Assembly: GCA_015064315.1 (NCBI GenBank)
Contig: SVSL01000003.1
Location: 1,258-65,257 of the forward strand
Length of the DNA: 64,000 bases
Direction of reading: 5' to 3'
DNA from: Oscillospiraceae bacterium
Lineage (GTDB): Bacteria > Bacillota > Clostridia > Oscillospirales > CAG-272
Shown: positions 7,542 to 17,410 of the stretch, one piece after another
How the letters are laid out: each line of letters opens with the position of its first letter
Numbering within the stretch: the stretch's first letter is position 1
Program-made: the position numbers and the translations under genes
The notes under the pieces: generated by a model
The model's input: the letters and a program-made list of their open reading frames with translations, nothing else
Told to the model about the DNA's origin: nothing
Databases searched by the model: none

Positions 7542-8351
7542 GTGAATCCGTTTTTGCTCATATTGGCGATCCTTGGCGGAATTTTGGGCTTGATCCTGTT
7601 GCTGATCCTGTTCGGCTCGGTCAAGATCCGCGTTATATTCAAAAAGAAATTACGCGTTGTGCTCTATGCTTTCGGCATTCCCATCACCCTTGTATCCGAC
7701 AAGCCGAAGAAAAAAGATCTGCCTCCGGAGTTAAAAAATTGCAAAAATCCCGAGGCGGTTCTGCGACGCGAAAAGAAAAAATATTTAAAGGCGCAGAAAA
7801 AAGCCGCTGAAAAGCAAGCAAAGCAAAAGCTGAAAAACGCTGAAAAAGCCAAGCGAAAAAAACAGCATCAATCGAAAGAAGCCAAGAAAAAGGATCCCTC
7901 AATGCCAAAGCTTTCCGAAAAGATCGCCTTTGTTTTTGCTTTGCTAAAGGCACTCTATCGGGCAACCAACGGAAAATTCCGTCTGCGCGTCTACCGTATG
8001 CATCTTTTGATAGGCACCGACGATGCGGCAAAAACCGCCATCCTCTACGGCGCCACCGTGCAGAGTGTTTCCTATATTTTGCAATGGCTGCAAACGCATT
8101 TTATTCCCATTCGTCGGGATGAGGGAGATATGACCATTGATCCCGACTTTGTACGGGGGAAAACCTCCGTGGATATTGATATTTGTTGCTCTCTGAAGCT
8201 TCGACGCGGTATGATCATCGGCGTAAGAATGCTTTGGGCGTACCTGAAGGAAAAGGAAGCCCTTGACCAAACCGTGAAAAAGCGTTTGGAGGAAGCACAA
8301 AAAGAGCTTTCCGATACACAAGCTCAAGAAACTACGACTTCAACCACATGA
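7542..8351 (+). CDS. DUF2953 (YtfI-like) membrane-anchored protein
   Basis: GTG after GGAGG; N-terminal TM segment; GTDDAAKTAILYG motif; directly upstream of ytfJ. Confidence 0.75.
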   Translation: MNPFLLILAILGGILGLILLLILFGSVKIRVIFKKKLRVVLYAFGIPITLVSDKPKKKDLPPELKNCKNPEAVLRREKKKYLKAQKKAAEKQAKQKLKNAEKAKRKKQHQSKEAKKKDPSMPKLSEKIAFVFALLKALYRATNGKFRLRVYRMHLLIGTDDAAKTAILYGATVQSVSYILQWLQTHFIPIRRDEGDMTIDPDFVRGKTSVDIDICCSLKLRRGMIIGVRMLWAYLKEKEALDQTVKKRLEEAQKELSDTQAQETTTSTT

Positions 8352-8365
8352 AAGGAAGAAATACT

Positions 8366-8923
8366 ATGGAAAACGAATCTTCTATCAAAAATCTGATCAC
8401 CGAATCGCTGCAACAGATCCGCACCTTTATTGATGCCGATACCATTGTTGGCAAGCAGATCGTAACCCCCGGCGGAACCGTTATCATTCCCATTTCCAAG
8501 CTTTCCATGGGCTTTGCTTCGGGCGGACTGGATATTCCCTCCAAAAAAAGCGACGCAAAGAGCTTTGGCGGTGGCGGCGGAACCGGTGTGACCGTTTCTC
8601 CCATCGGATTTTTGATCGTTTCTCCCGAGGGCAAGGTCAGCATGATGCCCTTGACCCCCTCCAAGAGCGGACCCGTGGAGCAGGTGTTTGACCTCTTGGA
8701 TCAGGCTCCCGGCTTGATCCAGCGCATTGTGGGCGCCTTTGGCAGCTCCAAGGATGCAGCCGAGGAGGAGGAAGAGCTTGCAAAGCGCGAAGCCGACATT
8801 GCCACACAGCTGGCGGAGGAGCTGGAGAGCCTTGAGCCCAAGTCTAAAAAGGATATCAAGGCTGCCATGAAGGAAGCCAAGCGCGCCGCAAAAGCGGAGA
8901 AGAAAGCCGCTCGCGACAACTGA
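8366..8923 (+). CDS. ytfJ: Sporulation protein YtfJ/GerW family
   Basis: DADTIVGKQI, IIPISKLSMGFASGG and FGGGGGTGVTVSPIGFL motifs. Confidence 0.9.
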   Translation: MENESSIKNLITESLQQIRTFIDADTIVGKQIVTPGGTVIIPISKLSMGFASGGLDIPSKKSDAKSFGGGGGTGVTVSPIGFLIVSPEGKVSMMPLTPSKSGPVEQVFDLLDQAPGLIQRIVGAFGSSKDAAEEEEELAKREADIATQLAEELESLEPKSKKDIKAAMKEAKRAAKAEKKAARDN

Positions 8924-9011
8924 CACGCGCAGCAGTCCCTTGGAAGCAGACATAAACGCGACTCCGGAAAAATATACATGAAATGAAACGTATTTTTCCG
9001 GAGGTCTTGCT

Positions 9012-10187
9012 ATGTCTGTATTCAAAAAAGCAATTTCGGTTATTCTGGCAATACTCGCGGTGCTTTCCTGCATTGCCCTTCCCATCTCGGCAGAGCCGAT
9101 AGAAAAGGAGCCGCTCCCCGTTCCGTCTGTTTCGGCAAAAAGCGCGATTCTGATGCTGGCATCCACGGGGGAGATTCTTTACCAAAAGGATTGTGACGTC
9201 AAGCTTCCCATGGCAAGCACCACCAAGATCATGACGGCATTGGTGGCGCTGGAGCTGGGATCCCCAAAACAGATGATTGCGGTATCTCCCGAGGCGGTTG
9301 GCGTGGAAGGCTCATCCATCTATTTGACCGCGGGCGAGCAGCTCTCCTTAGAGCAGCTTCTGTATGCCCTGCTTTTGGAGTCCGCCAACGATGCGGCGGT
9401 TGCCATTGCCTGCGGACTTTCGGGCAGTGTGGATTCCTTTGCCAAGAAGATGAACGAAAAAGCAGACTCGCTGGGACTTGTGCAAACACACTTTACCAAT
9501 CCTCACGGGTTGGATCACGAGGAGCACTATACCACGGCAAGAGAATTGGCGATCATCACCCAAGCACTTTTGAAAGATCCTCTGCTCCGCACCATTGTCT
9601 CCACCAGAAAGACCACCATCCCCCATGACGGAACCGACAGCGTCCGACTTTTGGTCAACCACAATAAAATGCTTCGCCTCTACGACGGCTGCATCGGTGT
9701 CAAGACCGGATTCACCAAACGCAGCGGCAGATGTCTGGTCTCGGCGGCAGAGCGTGACGGCGTTGAGCTGATCGCGGTAACGCTAAACGCATCGGACGAT
9801 TGGAACGATCACACCGCTCTTTTGAACTACGGCTTTTCTCGCTATGACGCGGTCAAGCTTTGCAACACAGAGGAGTATCTCTTTCCCCTGCCCGTAGTAG
9901 GAGGAACCGATGACTACGTCATGATCGGCAACACGGAAGCCCTGCAAGCCATTCTTCCCGTGCATCACGGCAGTATTGTGGTACGGGTGGAAGCCCCCCG
10001 CTTTGCCTATGCCGACGTCAGCGAGGGAGACGTGATTGGCAGCGTGATCTTTCTCTGCGACGTGGAATCCAACGGAAGCCTGCAAAAAATAGGAGAAGTC
10101 GAGCTGACCGCCCGCTACTCCGTGAAAAAAAAGAAGGTCAAAAGGAGCTTTTGGCAATGGCTGAAATCACTTTTTGGCTTTCATTGA
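9012..10187 (+). CDS. dacB: D-alanyl-D-alanine carboxypeptidase (S11; DacB-like by position)
   Basis: Signal peptide; MASTTKIMT (SxxK), SAND (SxN) and KTG motifs; follows ytfJ. Confidence 0.85.
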   Translation: MSVFKKAISVILAILAVLSCIALPISAEPIEKEPLPVPSVSAKSAILMLASTGEILYQKDCDVKLPMASTTKIMTALVALELGSPKQMIAVSPEAVGVEGSSIYLTAGEQLSLEQLLYALLLESANDAAVAIACGLSGSVDSFAKKMNEKADSLGLVQTHFTNPHGLDHEEHYTTARELAIITQALLKDPLLRTIVSTRKTTIPHDGTDSVRLLVNHNKMLRLYDGCIGVKTGFTKRSGRCLVSAAERDGVELIAVTLNASDDWNDHTALLNYGFSRYDAVKLCNTEEYLFPLPVVGGTDDYVMIGNTEALQAILPVHHGSIVVRVEAPRFAYADVSEGDVIGSVIFLCDVESNGSLQKIGEVELTARYSVKKKKVKRSFWQWLKSLFGFH

Positions 10188-11569: not shown

Positions 11570-12352
11570 ATGGAATACACCACCAAACTTTTGATCGCTG
11601 ACGAAAACCCCTCTTTTCGAGCATCCTTGAAGGATAGCCTTGTCCGTATGGGCTACCGTAACATTGAGGAAGCCGCCAACGGAGAGGAAGCGCTTTTGAA
11701 AATGGCACACTTCTATCCCGATATCGTTATTATGGACGTTTGGCTCTCCAAGCTGGACGGAATCGGCGTGCTTCGCGGCAGCCATTCCCTTGACTGGAGT
11801 CGCAGCAAGGAGCCTGCTTTTATCGTGGTCTCCTCGGTATCAAGCCAAAACATTTTCATTCAAGCCACCGAGGCAGGTGCCGAGCTGTGCCTGGTAAAGC
11901 CCTTGAATATCAATAGCCTTTGCGATCATATCCAAAGCATCCTTTCTCGCCGTCAGGATTCCGTTCCTGCCGCCGCCATGCAGACAGTGGGCAAGGAGCC
12001 TGATATTGAATCGCAGGTGACGCAGATCATCCATCAGATCGGCGTTCCCGCTCACATCAAGGGCTATCAGTATCTCCGCACCGCCATTCTTCTCACCATT
12101 AAGGACAATGATATCATCAATTCCGTTACGAAAGTTCTCTACCCGTCCGTGGCGAAGAAATACCAGACCACCACAAGCCGAGTCGAGCGTGCCATCCGCC
12201 ACGCAATCGAGGTCGCGTGGGACAGAGGCGACGTGGATACGCTCAACTCCTATTTCGGTTACACGATTCAAAACAACCGCGGTAAGCCCACAAATAGCGA
12301 ATTTATTGCGATGATTGCCGATAATTTGAGGTTGAAGTATAAGTTGTATTAA
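11570..12352 (+). CDS. spo0A: Sporulation master regulator Spo0A
   Basis: Receiver domain plus Spo0A_C signature [14 protein letters not shown]...[15 protein letters not shown]...[13 protein letters not shown]. Confidence 0.98.
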
Positions 12353-12545
12353 GAGGAGCGAAAAAAAGGCTTATAACATAAGGCTTTTTTGCAATCAAAA
12401 AAGTATCAACTTTGTATCAATTATCCCTATGAATATCTTCAATTTTCAATAAAAAAGCGATCAAAAACCTATAAACTTTTTTCATCGAAGCTATGAATAT
12501 CTCTGCTTTATTGGGTAGAAATCAAACCTATAAAGAGGAGAATGT

Positions 12546-13538
12546 ATGATGGAAAATTTGAATTTCAGTTTTCAATTGGATGAGTTTATGCTCTTTTGTC
12601 GAAGCAGACAACTGCGAGAAAAGACCATGAACAGTTATGAACAAACGCTTCGTTTATTCGAACGATGGTGTTGGGAGCGGTTTCAGATTGAAAATGTAGA
12701 TCAGATTACCGAAAGTGTGGTGCGCCGTTATATCAACGATTTGATGGAGCGAGGCAAATATTCCTTTTACACCGATGACAAGAGGAAAACAATCAATTAT
12801 CCCGAGCGGAGACGTGATTTCCGGAATCCAATATCAATCACTACGATCAATAATTATATTCGCAACTTGCGCGTTTTCTTCAATTGGTTGGATCGCGATT
12901 ATCTATTGCCAAAGAATCCCATGAAAAAGATTCGGCAGCTCAAGAACAACAGGAAAGCCAAGGAATATATCTCCGATGAAGACTTTAAGAGGTTGATCGG
13001 TCTGTTAGACAAATCCTATTTCTCTGAGCACCGCGATTTTGTGATGATCATTCTCATGATTGACACCGGCATGAGGCTTGGAGAATGCAGCTTGCTTTTG
13101 GTTGAGGACGTGAATCTGGCAAAGAAACAAGTTTTTCTTCGAGCAGAGAATACAAAAGGTCGTAAGGATCGGATCGTTTTCTTTTCCCCAAAGACCGAAA
13201 CAATCCTGCGGCGATGGTTGCAATTCAAGGATCGATACGCGGAAAGCGATTATCTCTTCCCTGTTAAATACAGCGGCGCGGCAATCGGCGTATCGAATTT
13301 CGAAACGAATTTCAAAAAATATCTCAAGCGAGCGGCATTGAATGAAAGCATCTCGCCCCATTGCCTGCGAAACAATTTTGCCAAACGATGCTTGATGAAC
13401 GGAATGGATATTTTCACACTTAGCAAAATTCTTGGGCATTCGAGTGTACGAGTTACCGAGGAAGCCTATCTTGATCTCAATAGCGATGATATCCAAAAGA
13501 GATATCAGAATTTCAGCCCAATGGCAACAATCAAATAA
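12546..13538 (+). CDS. Tyrosine recombinase/integrase
   Basis: Catalytic set R (TGMRLGE), K (NTKGRK), HxxR (HCLR), H (LGHS), Y (EAYL); GAGGAG RBS. Confidence 0.95.
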   Translation: MMENLNFSFQLDEFMLFCRSRQLREKTMNSYEQTLRLFERWCWERFQIENVDQITESVVRRYINDLMERGKYSFYTDDKRKTINYPERRRDFRNPISITTINNYIRNLRVFFNWLDRDYLLPKNPMKKIRQLKNNRKAKEYISDEDFKRLIGLLDKSYFSEHRDFVMIILMIDTGMRLGECSLLLVEDVNLAKKQVFLRAENTKGRKDRIVFFSPKTETILRRWLQFKDRYAESDYLFPVKYSGAAIGVSNFETNFKKYLKRAALNESISPHCLRNNFAKRCLMNGMDIFTLSKILGHSSVRVTEEAYLDLNSDDIQKRYQNFSPMATIK

Positions 13539-13541
13539 GAG

Positions 13542-13582
13542 CAGAAAGAAGCGAGAACGAAAACCGTTCTCGCTTCTTTCTG
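13542..13582. terminator. Bidirectional hairpin between the convergent integrase and WYL genes
   Basis: 18-bp perfect stem cagaaagaagcgagaacg/cgttctcgcttctttctg. Confidence 0.8.
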
Positions 13583-14686
13583 TTATCTTTGATACAATCC
13601 TTGTATTTTTGAGAGATGCTTTTCAAGCTCCTCGATTACAGGAGCTGGGGAAAGGAGCTTTGCCTTGTTTCCAAAACCGCATAGCCATCCAAAGAACATT
13701 GGACTGATCTCAACAGAGACGGATACTGTAAAATGCCGGCTATCCTCGGTCAGATAAGAGGCATAGTTTCCAAAGCGATCCACAATCGAATCCAAAAGAT
13801 CGTTTGTAAACCGTATCCGAACCAGTTCGCGCCGTCCGGTGTACATAGAAAAGACGCGCTTGGAATAAGTATCAAGGTATTCCTTGAGATTCTGCGTCAA
13901 ATCATTTCCCTCTCGCGCCTCACCGGTAAGCTTTACCTTGTTCATACGGTCAATGCGATAGGTCAGGAGCCGCTTGCTCTTGTCATCGATGCCAAGCAGA
14001 TAGTAGTTTCCTTCATTTATCATAATCGCATGAGGGCTCACAACATAATCACTCCCCCGGCGACGCTCTACCCTTTGCGTGGGATTTTGAATCGTGCACT
14101 TCAAATATTTGAACCGGATCTTTTCAGGTGCGTGGGGCTTCCCTTCCTTATATTCTGCCATTGCGGAATGAATGAGATCCACGTTGTCGAAGAGCTTGGC
14201 GTTATCTGTTTTTTCTCGGGAAACAGCAAAGGCATCATGCTTGATCTGCTCACGTTGATGCTTGCTCAAAAGTCTTCCAACACTGTCCGCAATATATTGG
14301 GTATCACGTTCAGTGACAAAGCGAGCGGTGTGAAGCGCTTCCACCAACAGGCGCGCATCTGAGGGATCAATGGAGCGGCTTGCAACATAGTATCCGTTTT
14401 TCTTTTTGAATTTGATAGTTGCCCTGTCCGGATCTTCCTCCAAAAGCGCCTCTGCCTCTTGATGGTCAATACCCTCCTCCAACATAATCTTGGCGATATT
14501 GATTTCTCTGACATCCTTGTAAATCGAGCGGCACTCCACGCAAACATCACAACAATCTTTTAAATATGCCAAAAGATTTTTAATCTTCACATAATGATTC
14601 TCGTCTGAATGTTCAAGTAAATATTGCAACACAAGAAAATGTTGCATGCGCTGATTTAGTCTTCGATTATTGTTCTCTTTTGCCAT
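13583..14686 (-). CDS. WYL-domain transcriptional regulator (N-terminal wHTH, WYL, WCX)
   Basis: N-terminal VLQYLLEHSDENHY...RSIYKDV; YVVSPHAIMINEGNYYLLG; YRIDRM; C-terminal FFGWLCGFG...LLSP. Promoter TTGACT-N17-TATAAT at 14740-14712. Confidence 0.88.
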   Translation of the reverse strand: MAKENNNRRLNQRMQHFLVLQYLLEHSDENHYVKIKNLLAYLKDCCDVCVECRSIYKDVREINIAKIMLEEGIDHQEAEALLEEDPDRATIKFKKKNGYYVASRSIDPSDARLLVEALHTARFVTERDTQYIADSVGRLLSKHQREQIKHDAFAVSREKTDNAKLFDNVDLIHSAMAEYKEGKPHAPEKIRFKYLKCTIQNPTQRVERRRGSDYVVSPHAIMINEGNYYLLGIDDKSKRLLTYRIDRMNKVKLTGEAREGNDLTQNLKEYLDTYSKRVFSMYTGRRELVRIRFTNDLLDSIVDRFGNYASYLTEDSRHFTVSVSVEISPMFFGWLCGFGNKAKLLSPAPVIEELEKHLSKIQGLYQR

Positions 14687-14931
14687 ACAATCACCGCCTT
14701 TCGATGGCACTATTATATCATTTAAAAAAATCGAAGTCAATGCAAATATAAAAAATTTTAATATTAAAACCCTTCACCATTCTAAAAAATATAATAGAAA
14801 TATTTTACATAGTATTGATATTGTTCTTTCAATATGGTACAATTATAATGATGTATTTATTAGTGTTTCATTTTATCATATTTTGATTTCGCCATTTTTT
14901 ACTCCTTTCTTATCGCATTTTGGGAGCGGAG

Positions 14932-15375
14932 TTATGCACTCTCACCGTTAAGGATCTGATCGACTCTCTTCTGATACTCAAGAACCTGCGGAAAGGTCTT
15001 CAAAAACCATCTGCGGATTTCAACGTAGGACTTAGGCTCGGATTCCAGTCCGTCATCATGCTTCGGATTTCGAAGCAACCGATACTCTTCCTCCTGTTCC
15101 TCGTTTCCGTTGCTCTTGAGAAATCTTTCCATATATTCATAGGTCAGTCCTCTCAAGCTATCCTTACTTTCTTTGCGAGCGGAGCGCTTTTTGATCTCAC
15201 GAATCTTGATCTCATAGTTGGGGAAAATGCTTTGATACGCAAGGAACGCGTTGTACTCGTCGGTTCCATAAATGGAAGCTCTCTTTGCGATATTCTTGGG
15301 CATAACAATCGTCTTATTCGCGTGATCAATGTGGAATTTCTGCATCATTTCTGCATTTACTTTCTGATTCATCAT
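14932..15375 (-). CDS. Hypothetical protein carried by the element
   Basis: 147-aa ORF with AAGGA RBS and an extended -10 (TGcTATAAT) upstream; no recognised domain. Confidence 0.75.
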   Translation of the reverse strand: MMNQKVNAEMMQKFHIDHANKTIVMPKNIAKRASIYGTDEYNAFLAYQSIFPNYEIKIREIKKRSARKESKDSLRGLTYEYMERFLKSNGNEEQEEEYRLLRNPKHDDGLESEPKSYVEIRRWFLKTFPQVLEYQKRVDQILNGESA

Positions 15376-15630
15376 GGTATTTTACAATCCTTTCGTTTTA
15401 AAAAATTTTTTTATTTCAGGATTGGGTTGGCGCCTTCCCTGTCCTCTGTGCCTATATTATAGCACGCCTTAATGCAAATAGACACACATTCAAAGGCATT
15501 CTAAATATTTTTTTGATATTTTCTATATTGTGTTTTTATGAAAACTTGATCTTATTTAGACAAATATTGATTGTTAGTTGACTCATTTTCGATCCGATTT
15601 TAATATTTTTGATATTCATAGGTTTGACGC

Positions 15631-15659
15631 TTGACATCTGATCAAAAATATGGTAATAT
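15631..15659 (+). promoter_or_regulatory. Sigma-A-like promoter facing the duplicated spo0A 3' fragment
   Basis: TTGACA-N17-TAATAT with TG extension. Confidence 0.6.
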
Positions 15660-15719
15660 AAGATTACTCTATAAAGCACAGAGGATCATAGCTACGAATA
15701 AACCAATAGATTTTTGACG

Positions 15720-15920
15720 GCAAAGAAATACCAGACTACAACAAGCCGAGTTGAGCGTGCAATCAGACACGCAATCGAGGTCGCATGGGACAGAGGCGAC
15801 GTGGATACGCTGAATTCTTATTTCGGATATACCATTCAGAACAACAGAGGAAAGCCCACAAATTCGGAGTTTATCGCGATGATTGCGGATAATTTGAGGT
15901 TGAAATATAAGCTGTATTAA
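15720..15920 (+). pseudogene. spo0A: Duplicated spo0A 3' fragment (att-site remnant)
   Basis: Encodes AKKYQTTT...LKYKLY, identical to the last 66 aa of Spo0A; only a TTG at 15714 without a clear RBS. Confidence 0.85.
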
Positions 15921-15925
15921 AGAAT

Positions 15926-15960
15926 GCCCTGCGACAGATTTTGTCGCGGGGCTCTTTTTT
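15926..15960 (+). terminator. Rho-independent terminator after the second spo0A copy
   Basis: Stem gccctgcgaca/tgtcgcggggc followed by a T tract. Confidence 0.8.
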
Positions 15961-15994
15961 CACTCGCACACACTTTGAGAACCTAAACGCCTTG

Positions 15995-16042
15995 AAAAAG
16001 TTTTTTGCACCACTTCAAAAAAAGTTTTTTGCACCACTTCAA
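15995..16042. repeat. Perfect 24-bp tandem duplication
   Basis: aaaaagttttttgcaccacttcaa twice, just upstream of TTGACA-N17-TACAAT (16052-16080). Confidence 0.9.
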
Positions 16043-16132
16043 AAAATGCTATTGACATCCCCTTTATTTCATGCTACAATAAAATAATCAATCTATAATG
16101 ATGTTGTCAAGAAAATAAAGAAAGGCGATTTT

Positions 16133-17410
16133 ATGAAGCAATCTCAAAAGCGTTTGTATTCATCCCTTCTGGCGCTTCTGTTGTGCAATTCCATATTGCT
16201 GGCGAGCTGTCAGAAAAAAAGCGATCAAGAATCCGAATCCTCGGACGCCGCTACCGACGGTATCATTTCCTCGGAGCAAACGACCGATGAAAACCAGCCG
16301 AGCTCGCCCGTACCGGATGCCAACGGCTTGGAATATCAGTTGAACGAAGAAGAAAAGACCTGCACCATTACGGGTCTTGGCACATACGGCAAAAACGAGC
16401 TGATCATTCCGAGCTCCGTTGAAGGTCACACGGTAACGCGAATTGAAGACAAAGCTTTTTATAACTGCACAAATCTTACCGGCATTGCTCTGCCCAACAG
16501 TCTGACGAGTATTGGCAACCACGCCTTTTATGGATGCACCGCTCTGCAAAGCGTAGAGAATAACGTTGTTTACGTTGGAAACTGGGCAATCGGAATGGTA
16601 GACTATTCCACCGCCGCCATGCTTACAATTCGCGAAAACACCGTTGGAATTGGCGATTTTGCATTTCAAAGCCTCCTAAATCTTACCCACGTCATCCTGC
16701 CGGAAGGATTGCTTTATCTGGGGTGCGGTGCGTTTTGCTTGTCCGAAAACATCAAAAGCATCACCCTTCCGAACAGTTTGAAAGAGATTGGGATGGATGC
16801 CTTTGGGGATTGCTATGGCATTACAAGCATCACGATTCCCAATCAAGTGAACAAGATCGGCGATCACGCATTTGCCATGTGCAAAAATCTGAAAGAGATC
16901 GTGATTCCCGACAGCGTAACCGAAATGGGAGAAAGCGTCTTTTCGAATTGCAGCAATCTGGAAAGCGTTACGCTCTCCAAAAGCTTGAAAAGCCTTCCCG
17001 ATTGGATGTTTTATCAGTGCAACAAGCTTGTCAAAATGACGATTCCCGAAGGGGTCACCGAAATCGGAAGCTTTTTCTTTTATGAATGCGCCAATTTGGA
17101 GCAAATCATCCTTTCCTCAAGTGTCACGCAAATCTATGACTACGCCTTTGACAAATGTGACAATCTGAAAACGGTTTATTATACCGGTACCCGGGAGCAA
17201 TGGAATATCACCGTTGATTTTCCCAACGAGCCCTTTTCCAATGCAACGATCTGCTATTACTCCGAAGCCACCCCCTCAACGCAGGGCAACTACTGGAGAT
17301 ACGTGGACGGCGTACCGCAAATTTGGGATTCTTCCCCCACAAATGAATTCGTTTCTTTTGAAAAAGGCGAAGTCGGTGGTATCGAAGGCGGCGCAATTAT
17401 TGAATGGTAA
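16133..17410 (+). CDS. BspA-type leucine-rich-repeat lipoprotein
   Basis: Lipobox LASC; repeated L..I.IP.SVT.IG..AF..C units. Confidence 0.9.
   Translation: MKQSQKRLYSSLLALLLCNSILLASCQKKSDQESESSDAATDGIISSEQTTDENQPSSPVPDANGLEYQLNEEEKTCTITGLGTYGKNELIIPSSVEGHTVTRIEDKAFYNCTNLTGIALPNSLTSIGNHAFYGCTALQSVENNVVYVGNWAIGMVDYSTAAMLTIRENTVGIGDFAFQSLLNLTHVILPEGLLYLGCGAFCLSENIKSITLPNSLKEIGMDAFGDCYGITSITIPNQVNKIGDHAFAMCKNLKEIVIPDSVTEMGESVFSNCSNLESVTLSKSLKSLPDWMFYQCNKLVKMTIPEGVTEIGSFFFYECANLEQIILSSSVTQIYDYAFDKCDNLKTVYYTGTREQWNITVDFPNEPFSNATICYYSEATPSTQGNYWRYVDGVPQIWDSSPTNEFVSFEKGEVGGIEGGAIIEW

Follow-up and report, generated by a model that had tools for sequence, protein, structure and literature searches.

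In endospore formers it is spo0A that decides on sporulation, and sporulation shapes the persistence and spread of gut Clostridia. Skin and SPbeta use large serine recombinases, and the icd gene of Escherichia coli is used by the e14 prophage and also by phage 21. Skin in sigK, SPbeta in spsM and the yin element in yabG are described, in the excerpted text of PMC5025042 and PMC10747680, as mobile elements residing in sporulation genes of endospore formers. For e14, the excerpts of PMC13626634 state that icd runs into the prophage and that a C-terminal fragment, icdC, lies at its far end, that the two ends differ mostly synonymously and that excision yields a chimeric, working icd. Here we describe a locus in a 64,000-nucleotide stretch of contig SVSL01000003.1 from an Oscillospiraceae bacterium (this whole stretch is called the window), in which a 3.6-kb element with a Xer-like tyrosine integrase is integrated at the 3′ end of spo0A.

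This locus resembles e14 in icd, as far as the prophage is described in those excerpts, in that the 3′ part of a conserved protein-coding gene harbours an element without being broken, and a fragment of the gene stands at the far end. Direct repeats of the gene end with an intact gene and an orphan are present, and the recombinase is found beside the same gene in unrelated hosts. It differs from e14 in its short Xer-like recombinase, in repeats that are longer and more diverged (82–98% identity) and in a family that ranges from cassettes of ~2 kb to prophages. Skin-type elements split a reading frame, the gene being restored by excision during sporulation, whereas the frame of spo0A is never broken here, and unlike skin and SPbeta the window element employs a tyrosine recombinase, which is its sole recombinase; no large serine recombinase is encoded in it. 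By this comparison, the spo0A elements appear to be a system of the e14/icd kind in which both the target and the integrase family are new. The literature searched, which comprised open-access articles and preprints, including the excerpted text of PMC5027557 and PMC10747680, contained no paper that names spo0A as an attachment site, while a report in a subscription journal is possible; the family is large and apparently undescribed, with a wide distribution in gut and soil Clostridia. The features on which the comparison rests are the following.

11570..12352, + strand: intact spo0A, 260 amino acids, with a receiver domain (PF00072, E 1.8e-18) and the Spo0A_C DNA-binding domain (PF08769, E 5.4e-47); left junction (attL)
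12152..12352, + strand: copy A, the final 66 codons and stop of the intact gene; G+C content at third codon positions (GC3) 0.67, versus 0.62 in spo0A codons 1–194
15720..15920, + strand: copy B, the orphan spo0A tail; GC3 0.53, resembling the element genes (0.47–0.55); right junction (attR)
12546..13538, + strand: Xer-like tyrosine integrase, 330 amino acids (PF00589, E 1.7e-28)

The last 66 codons of spo0A and its stop are thus present twice, at 12152–12352 and 15720–15920. Ungapped alignment of the two copies gives 26 mismatches in 201 nt, distributed over 22 codons and without any gap, and both translate into the same 66 residues followed by the stop, which agrees in every figure with an original prediction made from the letters of the window. 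By blastn, the copies are 87.1% identical over 202 nt (E 9e-67), far above chance expectation within 64 kb. Their likeness breaks off 1 nt to the left of 12152/15720 and directly after the TAA. The open reading frame (ORF) of 260 amino acids with both domains bears out the claim that Spo0A is kept intact, and an interruption of the frame as in skin is not seen. Copy B covers 66 of the ~105 residues of the Spo0A_C domain and is not a complete effector domain with a start of its own: its sole in-frame start is a TTG at 15714, preceded, as read by eye, by an in-frame TAA 12 nt upstream and by no Shine-Dalgarno sequence nearby.

The original prediction had called the second copy a synonymously recoded duplicate, a term that suggests a special process. 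Across the genus of the window, the protein encoded by the 66-residue tail is 94–100% conserved and its DNA just 76–86% identical, and in the 12 ungapped repeat pairs of the family 124 codons differ with three residue changes. Since synonymous-only divergence is a family-wide trait, recoding is not a separate process, and this claim is dropped; the two copies are best understood as two natural alleles of a strongly constrained coding stretch.

The association of the integrase with spo0A was determined in scans queried with integrase peptides only, after which the upstream neighbours were inspected. The genome scan, with one genome per prokaryote species and an alignment of 18 integrases, yielded 80 loci with 46–83% identity. 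The 3′ end of spo0A lay within 330 nt upstream and on the same strand in 77/77 genome loci with at least 330 nt of upstream sequence, and the integrase of the family loci starts ~200 nt downstream of spo0A. Among metagenome loci with enough upstream sequence, a spo0A end precedes the integrase in 27 of 28; the best 120 of more than 2,200 integrase relatives are all at least 71% identical. The lone exception (L192, a metagenome contig of 1852 bp, with the features concerned at 62–517 and 723–1730) speaks against a strict rule, as its integrase is 75% identical to that of the window and the upstream fragment was read as aldehyde dehydrogenase-like and not as spo0A; with a coverage of 0.8-fold, this contig may be a chimera or represent a secondary site. 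Distant integrases (29–32% identity) have no spo0A neighbour. The hosts belong to the Oscillospiraceae, the Christensenellales and Clostridium proper and include the isolates Pseudoflavonifractor capillosus ATCC 29799, Oscillibacter valericigenes An860 and Clostridium celatum DSM 1785. The element measures ~7.8 kb in the first of these isolates (L147) and ~9 kb in the second (L111); the third corresponds to L182. Integrases that are 99–100% identical occur on several contigs. Among deposited phage genomes (50,697 records) no member of the integrase family was found, the best match having 27% identity, and a scan of viral contigs with a single integrase returned two distant relatives only.

Within the genus of the window, the integrase family is present in 2/78 species genomes, one copy being truncated. 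Nine of ten genus loci with full-length spo0A (L003–L012) show no match to the element proteins in the 1.5 kb beyond spo0A, a distance over which L009 could not be scored in full, and in genome G009 a host gene directly follows spo0A. Occupied and empty spo0A sites hence both exist at the genus level. The comparison with relatives lacking the element that had been asked for is thereby answered in part: empty sites are found in the genus, and the metagenome collection and public runs searched yielded none from the same species. That the 3′ end of spo0A is the attB of a tyrosine-integrase element, as had been proposed, is upheld by the 77/77 genome and 27/28 metagenome loci, and integrase homologues without any tie to spo0A, which had been named as the outcome that would speak against it, are clearly not what was found, the association being near-absolute. 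We therefore regard the feature as real, namely as an integrated element at a conserved spo0A attachment site, an unusually important target, and hold it for highly probable that this gene end is the attachment site. The family spans from cassettes of ~2 kb to prophages of ~35–60 kb, with the window element as a minimal member. A second integrase lineage may use the same gene end, as in three loci of the IMG/VR database (L061, L068, L100) an integrase ~30% identical and on the opposite strand is located just upstream of an orphan spo0A tail.

The duplication of the gene end is likewise a property of the family. In 79 loci including the window, each with 8.2 kb in view, a second spo0A tail is present in 14, delimiting elements of 1.9–8.1 kb with repeats that are 82–98% identical, so the 87% of the window is ordinary for the family. 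Further orphans are located 8.4 to ~20 kb away in G094, G095, G098 and G099, and wherever the far end is in view an orphan tail recurs there. The orphans comprise 19–77 codons with left edges at arbitrary codons that vary among related integrases; the tails measure 79–251 nt across elements, and the repeat ends within 4 nt of the stop in 9/14. Decayed copies are found as well. In the same genus, L016 (contig C72 of G011) possesses a tail at 2–223, an integrase at 503–901 that is cut at residue 133 and a shorter tail at 1318–1422, and the integrases of L129, L140 and L151 are cut or broken. In L140 stacked orphans stand at +2835 and +3211 after the stop, and in L169 and L127/G099 a tail is followed by the left end of a second element. 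Such stacked orphans and tandem junctions suggest repeated integrations at one site that would leave scars behind spo0A.

Two side observations concern the same kinds of sequence. In L015 (contig C106 of G009), two homologues of the 147-amino-acid ORF of the window element stand in tandem (8332–9143) and are followed by an orphan tail (9508–9696), whose flanking DNA is 80% identical to window positions 15602–15920. We considered this contig as a sister element and rejected it: in that genome spo0A is on a different contig and followed by a host gene, synteny with the window does not extend to the flanks, and the contig possibly stems from another strain in the bin, so nothing is drawn from it. 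In G098 and G099 (contigs C54, C63, C66 and C97) and on contig C3 of G097, extra ORFs of 169–262 amino acids are 39–55% identical to the Spo0A effector domain; these frames come in addition to spo0A itself and the orphan.

At both ends of the element, hairpins, repeated motifs and a promoter-like site are found.

12358..12392, + strand: weak AT-rich hairpin with U-run after copy A (−10.6 kcal/mol, z −3.2), standing in for the native spo0A terminator
12466–12475 and 12525–12534, + strand: motif AACCTATAAA, two copies between spo0A and the integrase gene, putative binding sites for protein in the left arm
12507–12516, + strand: family-wide motif TTTATTGGGT between the two AACCTATAAA copies (coordinates read by eye)
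15615..15624, − strand: inverted arm motif AACCTATGAA at the right end, ~100 nt left of copy B
15631..15659, + strand: outward promoter-like site into copy B (TTGACA, 17 nt, TAATAT, with TG in front)
15926..15952, + strand: native GC-rich intrinsic terminator of spo0A, now behind the orphan (12 pairs, 8 of them GC, T-run; −23.8 kcal/mol, z −5.8)

The folding energies of −23.8 versus −10.6 kcal/mol agree with the view that the GC-rich terminator has been displaced and a weak hairpin put in its place; the latter was not scored as terminator-like in the terminator scan. A hairpin with T-run of −7 kcal/mol or better is present in 30 of 79 spacers between spo0A and integrase, and in the window none is found under this rule. 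Among five such spacer hairpins listed, four adjoin the integrase start, and we draw no firm conclusion on read-through from them. The arm motifs recur in a constant geometry. The 7-mers of TTTATTGGGT are found in 41–54 of the 79 spacers, the left-arm copies keep fixed distances of ~55 and ~115 nt downstream of the stop, and a right-end motif shared with the left spacer lies 75–108 nt from the left edge of the orphan in 8/14 elements. Matches to AACCTATNAA number three in the 64-kb window, every one at the ends of the element, with 0.2 expected.

Promoter-like sites are unevenly distributed. Under one fixed rule, none of the 79 spacers (0/79) contains a sigma-A-type promoter-like site, while the right ends of the elements carry a strong outward one in 11/14, 82–158 nt before the orphan, and an inward one in 1/14. 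Because no promoter-like site is present in any of the 79 spacers, transcription from spo0A into the integrase, as originally suggested, is plausible. These calls are consensus matches for sigma-A-type sites, the one class covered by the scan, which tempers this interpretation. Insertion sequences of the IS911 type and Tn916 form junction promoters upon circularization. The likeness is that the recombinase gene at one end would come under the control of the outward promoter at the opposite end only after circularization; for the spo0A elements it consists of consensus matches alone, in 11/14 right ends versus 0/79 spacers.

The position of the strand exchange within the repeat is indicated by pairs of related elements and by base composition.

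12299..12318, + strand: most likely crossover in copy A, within the EFIAMIA codons, as deduced from the exchange points of L111, L112 and L127 and the switch in composition

The integrases of L111 and L112 are 95% identical to each other and 76% to that of the window, and their hosts are an Oscillibacter and a Pseudoflavonifractor. The intact spo0A genes at both loci share their last 11 residues, continuous with the element, and the orphans have differing C-termini with host DNA after each; we judge these orphan ends to be host-typical, with similar endings in L147 and L143/L144. In their left parts, as counted by eye from the alignment, the orphans are ~92% alike versus ~84% for the intact genes. 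Identity at these junctions breaks inside or just after the EFIAMIA codons, and the tandem junction of L127 changes over within this block as well. Of the GC-informative differences in the window, those left of offset 141 favour copy A by 13:1 and those from there on copy B by 3:1 (Fisher p 0.019; scan permutation p 0.0145). In seven high-GC3 hosts the ratios are 24:12 left versus 3:11 right of the block (p 0.005), and 11:9 versus 2:10 (p 0.036) without the window; in L113, whose host has a GC3 of 0.91, the differences on the right side of the block favour the orphan, with a ratio of 1:7. Over the whole tail, GC3 runs in mixed directions in 12 elements and becomes informative only once split at the conserved block. 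For this window, we thus lean towards a crossover inside the repeat, in the EFIAMIA codons ~35–50 nt before the stop. Assigning the native copy by likeness to relatives was attempted and abandoned; synonymous sites are saturated, with codon identities of 0.38–0.56 in the 5′ part and 0.38–0.67 in the tail, and neither copy could be placed. A weak dyad of the type of Xer sites is visible by eye near the proposed crossover, and we make no claim on it.

Several observations weigh against an exchange at this point. When the window is split at the proposed central region, the ratios are 13:3 versus 1:1 and thus weak, and five low-GC3 hosts (14:18 and 8:12) give no compositional signal. In L137/L138, L155/L156 and L184/L186, whose integrases are 46–64% identical to that of the window, near-identical elements are attached to spo0A ends whose differences extend to within a few nt of the stop. 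The two tails of L137, and likewise those of L138, agree with the protein of their own host though the elements are 98% identical, and where phages are otherwise nearly identical, variation is greatest in the tail, which has a mosaic look. A single fixed crossover would fail for cases of the L137/L138 type unless there was an extra exchange between the element tail and host tails, which could proceed by recombination between the direct repeats or by migration of the junction through homology before resolution. The untranslated arm, which likewise shows only synonymous differences, would have to be refreshed from host genes, as we assume.

From these data we derive the following model. The Xer-like integrase would recombine the element with the 3′ end of spo0A, with the strands exchanged where the gene is best conserved, at the EFIAMIA codons. 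On either side of this point the element would carry spo0A sequence, namely an untranslated homology arm of 25–190 nt on the left and, on the right, a substitute for the stop and roughly the final 12 codons. Upon integration, the Spo0A protein would remain unchanged, the gene would gain the last codons of the element together with a weaker 3′ end, and the native last codons and terminator would be left behind the arm of the element as the orphan. Copy B would accordingly be a mosaic, with the element-borne arm up to ~15866 and the displaced native last codons from ~15887, and most of copy A would be native. The copies would differ only synonymously because they represent two natural alleles, that of the present host and another picked up in earlier hosts. 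On the chromosome, the outward promoter would run into the native spo0A terminator behind the orphan, and the integrase would be reached only by spo0A transcription through the weak hairpin. In the circle, the outward right-end promoter would read through the tail into the integrase gene and favour integration, with the WYL protein of the element as a likely switch. As a whole, the explanation by a 3.6-kb element of a family docking at the spo0A 3′ end, with an internal exchange and this promoter arrangement, is in our judgement reasonably probable, and the promoter arrangement as a working mechanism is put forward tentatively.

Spo0A pieces are also found on viral contigs. Searched against IMG/VR, the 66-residue tail had 111 matches, and 80 loci were retained. 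An integrase ~47% identical to that of the window follows the spo0A end at the same spacing in 15 of them, some of these contigs being 35–60 kb long, and in 13/80 the full spo0A of the host is found at the prophage border. Short tails below domain size occur in 42/80; 11 of them have a family integrase just downstream, three another integrase, 17 are at the end of the contig or locus, and 11 are in other contexts, some of which are right junctions as read by eye. In the remaining class of 25/80 the ORFs are domain-sized (40–65% identical), nearly all of them possess a start codon and are extended N-terminally by a part that is not a receiver, and 24 of the 25 lie away from contig ends (L052, L054, L056, L063, L067, L069–L077, L086–L089, L092–L094, L096, L098, L103 and L104); these look like real phage genes. 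Among deposited phage genomes, 14 records of uncultured faecal phages carry effector-domain-sized spo0A pieces. Schwartz et al. 2023 (PMC10294663), in the text excerpted, report that contigs of gut phages harbour truncated homologues of spo0A, which they interpret as regulators. The likeness to that report, as far as excerpted, lies in pieces of the Spo0A DNA-binding domain on gut viral contigs, which comprises 29 sequences, and copy B of the window belongs to the short-tail class. The suggestion that attachment-site remnants explain truncated spo0A genes of phages holds for the short pieces (42/80) and fails for the whole effector-domain ORFs (25/80).

Other positions of the crossover were weighed against the internal one. 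If it fell at 12152/15720, where the repeat begins on the left, the element would have supplied the final 66 codons in full, as the original prediction assumed, and the orphan would be the complete native end. This is the classical arrangement, as the excerpts of PMC13626634 give it for e14 at icd with icdC at the far end, and it would explain synonymous-only divergence directly, the element's copy being translated; the right-end motif is moreover fairly constant at 75–108 nt from this edge in 8/14 elements despite tails of 79–251 nt, and L137 and L138, which come from distinct hosts, have the edge in common. The edges are located at many different codons among related integrases, though, and in eight pairs of near-identical elements from different species the left part of the intact-gene tail diverges like host DNA, near-identity starting at or shortly before the stop. 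A left-edge crossover also predicts the opposite of what L111/L112 show (orphan left parts ~92% versus intact genes ~84% alike), and in the window the left 140 nt are host-like in composition in copy A and element-like in copy B, which together makes it unlikely. Conversely, a crossover at or just after the stop would leave the intact gene wholly native, swap the 3′ untranslated region alone and let the full orphan tail travel with the element. The end of the repeat within 4 nt of the stop in 9/14 elements, the onset of near-identity at or within 9 nt of the stop in L137/L138, L173/L177, L155/L156 and L184/L186, the overall GC3, host-like in copy A and element-like in copy B, and the constant left-arm motifs at +55 and +115 nt from the stop are all in keeping with it. 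It is at odds with the last 11 residues that L111 and L112 have in common across two genera, continuous with the element, while their orphan ends differ and run into host DNA, with the 1:7 ratio in favour of the orphan right of the block in L113 (host GC3 0.91), and with the orphans of L137 and L138, which match the protein of their own host and not each other's; we consider it quite unlikely. Composition and the L111/L112/L127 junctions thus favour the internal point over the geometry first proposed, from which the exchange of the 3′ untranslated region stands.

The remaining alternatives concern the state of the element and the nature of copy B. The element may be a stranded remnant that once integrated at spo0A and is now unable to excise or move, the repeat being its scar. 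It is very small, no excisionase, replication or transfer gene is recognised in it, decayed relatives exist (C72 of G011, L129, L140 and L151), and circle and empty site are unseen: neither an excised circle nor a same-species empty site was found in the metagenome and public-run searches, an exact 24-nt word of spo0A just left of the repeat had 0 hits in the metagenome collection, and an in-register joint of 12151 to 15720 was not among the joints listed from four public runs, which were compared at 90% likeness and contain five further joints. These negative results count against a mobile element. Set against immobility are the whole integrase ORF with all six conserved residues, the motifs at both ends together with the outward promoter, the 99–100% identical integrases on several contigs and the signs of recent cargo turnover in public runs, where X3 and X5 have no contig cover of the WYL region and an X3 contig leaves the window sequence at 14874; we deem a stranded remnant possible and not the likelier case. 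An assembly artefact, in which the spo0A ends of two strains were misjoined around an unrelated island, could be suspected in a metagenome bin of 116 contigs and 81.5% completeness with many spo0A variants in the same samples. Contigs from another assembler span both junctions without differences, as Logan contigs cover 12229–12601 (run X2), 14830–15803 (X1), 15091–15803 (X2) and 15870–16672 (X1), a variant of the left junction (12266–12641, 11 differences, one gap) is present in run X3 of another study, and the same architecture recurs in isolate genomes and dozens of independent assemblies. X1 and X2 may be the samples behind the window assembly. With the junctions bridged by a second assembler, the chimeric assembly considered as an alternative in the original prediction is very unlikely, its probability being next to nil. 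Finally, copy B might be expressed as a truncated Spo0A peptide that interferes with sporulation control, a role put forward for spo0A carried by phages, given that a strong promoter-like site reads into the orphan, that its coding sequence is perfectly preserved and that stand-alone effector-domain ORFs exist on 25/80 viral loci and truncated spo0A in gut phages (PMC10294663, as excerpted). With 66 of the ~105 domain residues, a TTG as the only start, an in-frame stop 12 nt upstream and no Shine-Dalgarno sequence by eye, and with orphans of 19–77 codons whose arbitrary left edges are unlike a folded product, this seems very improbable. The integrated element with an internal exchange remains the reading we prefer.

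Junctions of the excised type are confined to related phages, plus the tandem junction in L127. Six viral contigs show the phage right end, a tail and the integrase, and one shows the host spo0A, a tail and the integrase. In L048, the right end and tail are followed by unrelated sequence ~21 nt past the stop, and in L044 a further ~130 nt resembling a left end precede the downstream sequence that it shares with L048. In the public runs, joints such as 12066 to 15768 were examined as candidates and discarded, as they are out of register, with sides of 21 nt and a depth that does not fit the organism, and were taken as the spo0A of other organisms; one back-going joint (15636 to 12192, a single X1 contig with depth 4 and a side of 31) is uninterpretable.

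Beyond this locus, the spo0A 3′ end could be a shared docking site and exchangeable cassette across Clostridia with the integrase tied to the sporulation decision, a generalization that we regard as rather doubtful at present. If it were true, prophages and mini-elements would swap the last codons and the 3′ untranslated region of the regulator between strains, excision would rise at the onset of sporulation, and a considerable fraction of what is called 'phage-encoded spo0A' in viromes would be attachment-site scars and not genes. The integrase family offers a ready marker for the borders of prophages and islands in Clostridia, and it cautions against taking every short spo0A piece of a viral contig for an auxiliary gene. 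The locus also presents a natural system in which a mobile element may read a host sporulation signal. The family changes the 3′ end of the master regulator and would move its last codons between strains.

Between the junctions the element measures 3,568 bp, with a G+C content below that of its surroundings. Besides the integrase it contains the following features.

13540..13584, both strands: two-way terminator-like hairpin between the converging integrase and WYL genes (19–20 pairs, 9 of them GC, called on either strand)
13583..14740, − strand: WYL-WCX protein, putative ligand-sensing regulator (Pfam: WYL 32.4 bits, cut-off 21.8; WCX 28.7 bits, cut-off 23.9)
14932..15375, − strand: 147-amino-acid protein with homologues near the right end of related elements

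The ORF list and the Pfam matches agree that solely an integrase, a WYL regulator and the 147-amino-acid ORF lie between the copies, as had been noted before. No replication, packaging, transfer or excisionase gene was recognised among the three ORFs, and the element does not show the set of integrase, repressor, replication module and packaging-hijacking genes of a phage satellite of the phage-inducible chromosomal island type. The N-terminal part of the integrase matches Phage_int_SAM_1, SAM_4 and SAM_5, indicating a SAM-like core-binding domain, and a separate arm-binding N-terminal domain was not detected with Pfam, PHROGs and NCBIfam. Its best NCBIfam models, XerA, XerC and XerD, each score below their cut-off, and it is therefore an orthologue of none of them. 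Residues R177, K204, H272, R275, H298 and Y308, which we take to be the catalytic ones, are invariant in an alignment of 18 homologues.

The WYL gene probably starts at an ATG near 14686, a position read by eye from the ORF translation and located downstream of a promoter-like site at 14740–14712. In the protein, the WYL domain is followed by a WCX domain, as in transcription regulators of the BrxR, CapW and PafBC type. No helix-turn-helix family matched the WYL protein with an E of 0.01 or better in Pfam and NCBIfam. It converges on the integrase in 19/70 genome loci and 13/19 metagenome loci with room to see. The 147-amino-acid protein belongs to no family in Pfam, PHROGs or NCBIfam and has six close homologues, all nameless; homologues are present in 13/80 genome loci and 4/44 metagenome loci. 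Its AlphaFold model (predicted local distance difference test score 75.8, predicted template modelling score 0.42) has no match in the PDB at E 0.001 or better by Foldseek. In larger relatives, additional cargo separates the WYL gene from the 147-amino-acid homologue. In a relative of ~8 kb (L222), a serine resolvase (11691–12320, − strand, PF00239, E 5e-28) is carried as cargo, and several ORFs without a family are also found between the WYL gene and the 147-amino-acid homologue. In runs X3 and X5, no contig covers the WYL region (window 13412–14818), yet the integrase and the 147-amino-acid ORF are covered, and one X3 contig departs from the window sequence at 14874; apart from this case, uncovered stretches in the runs were given no weight. 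This pattern suggests a variant element in which other cargo replaces the WYL gene.

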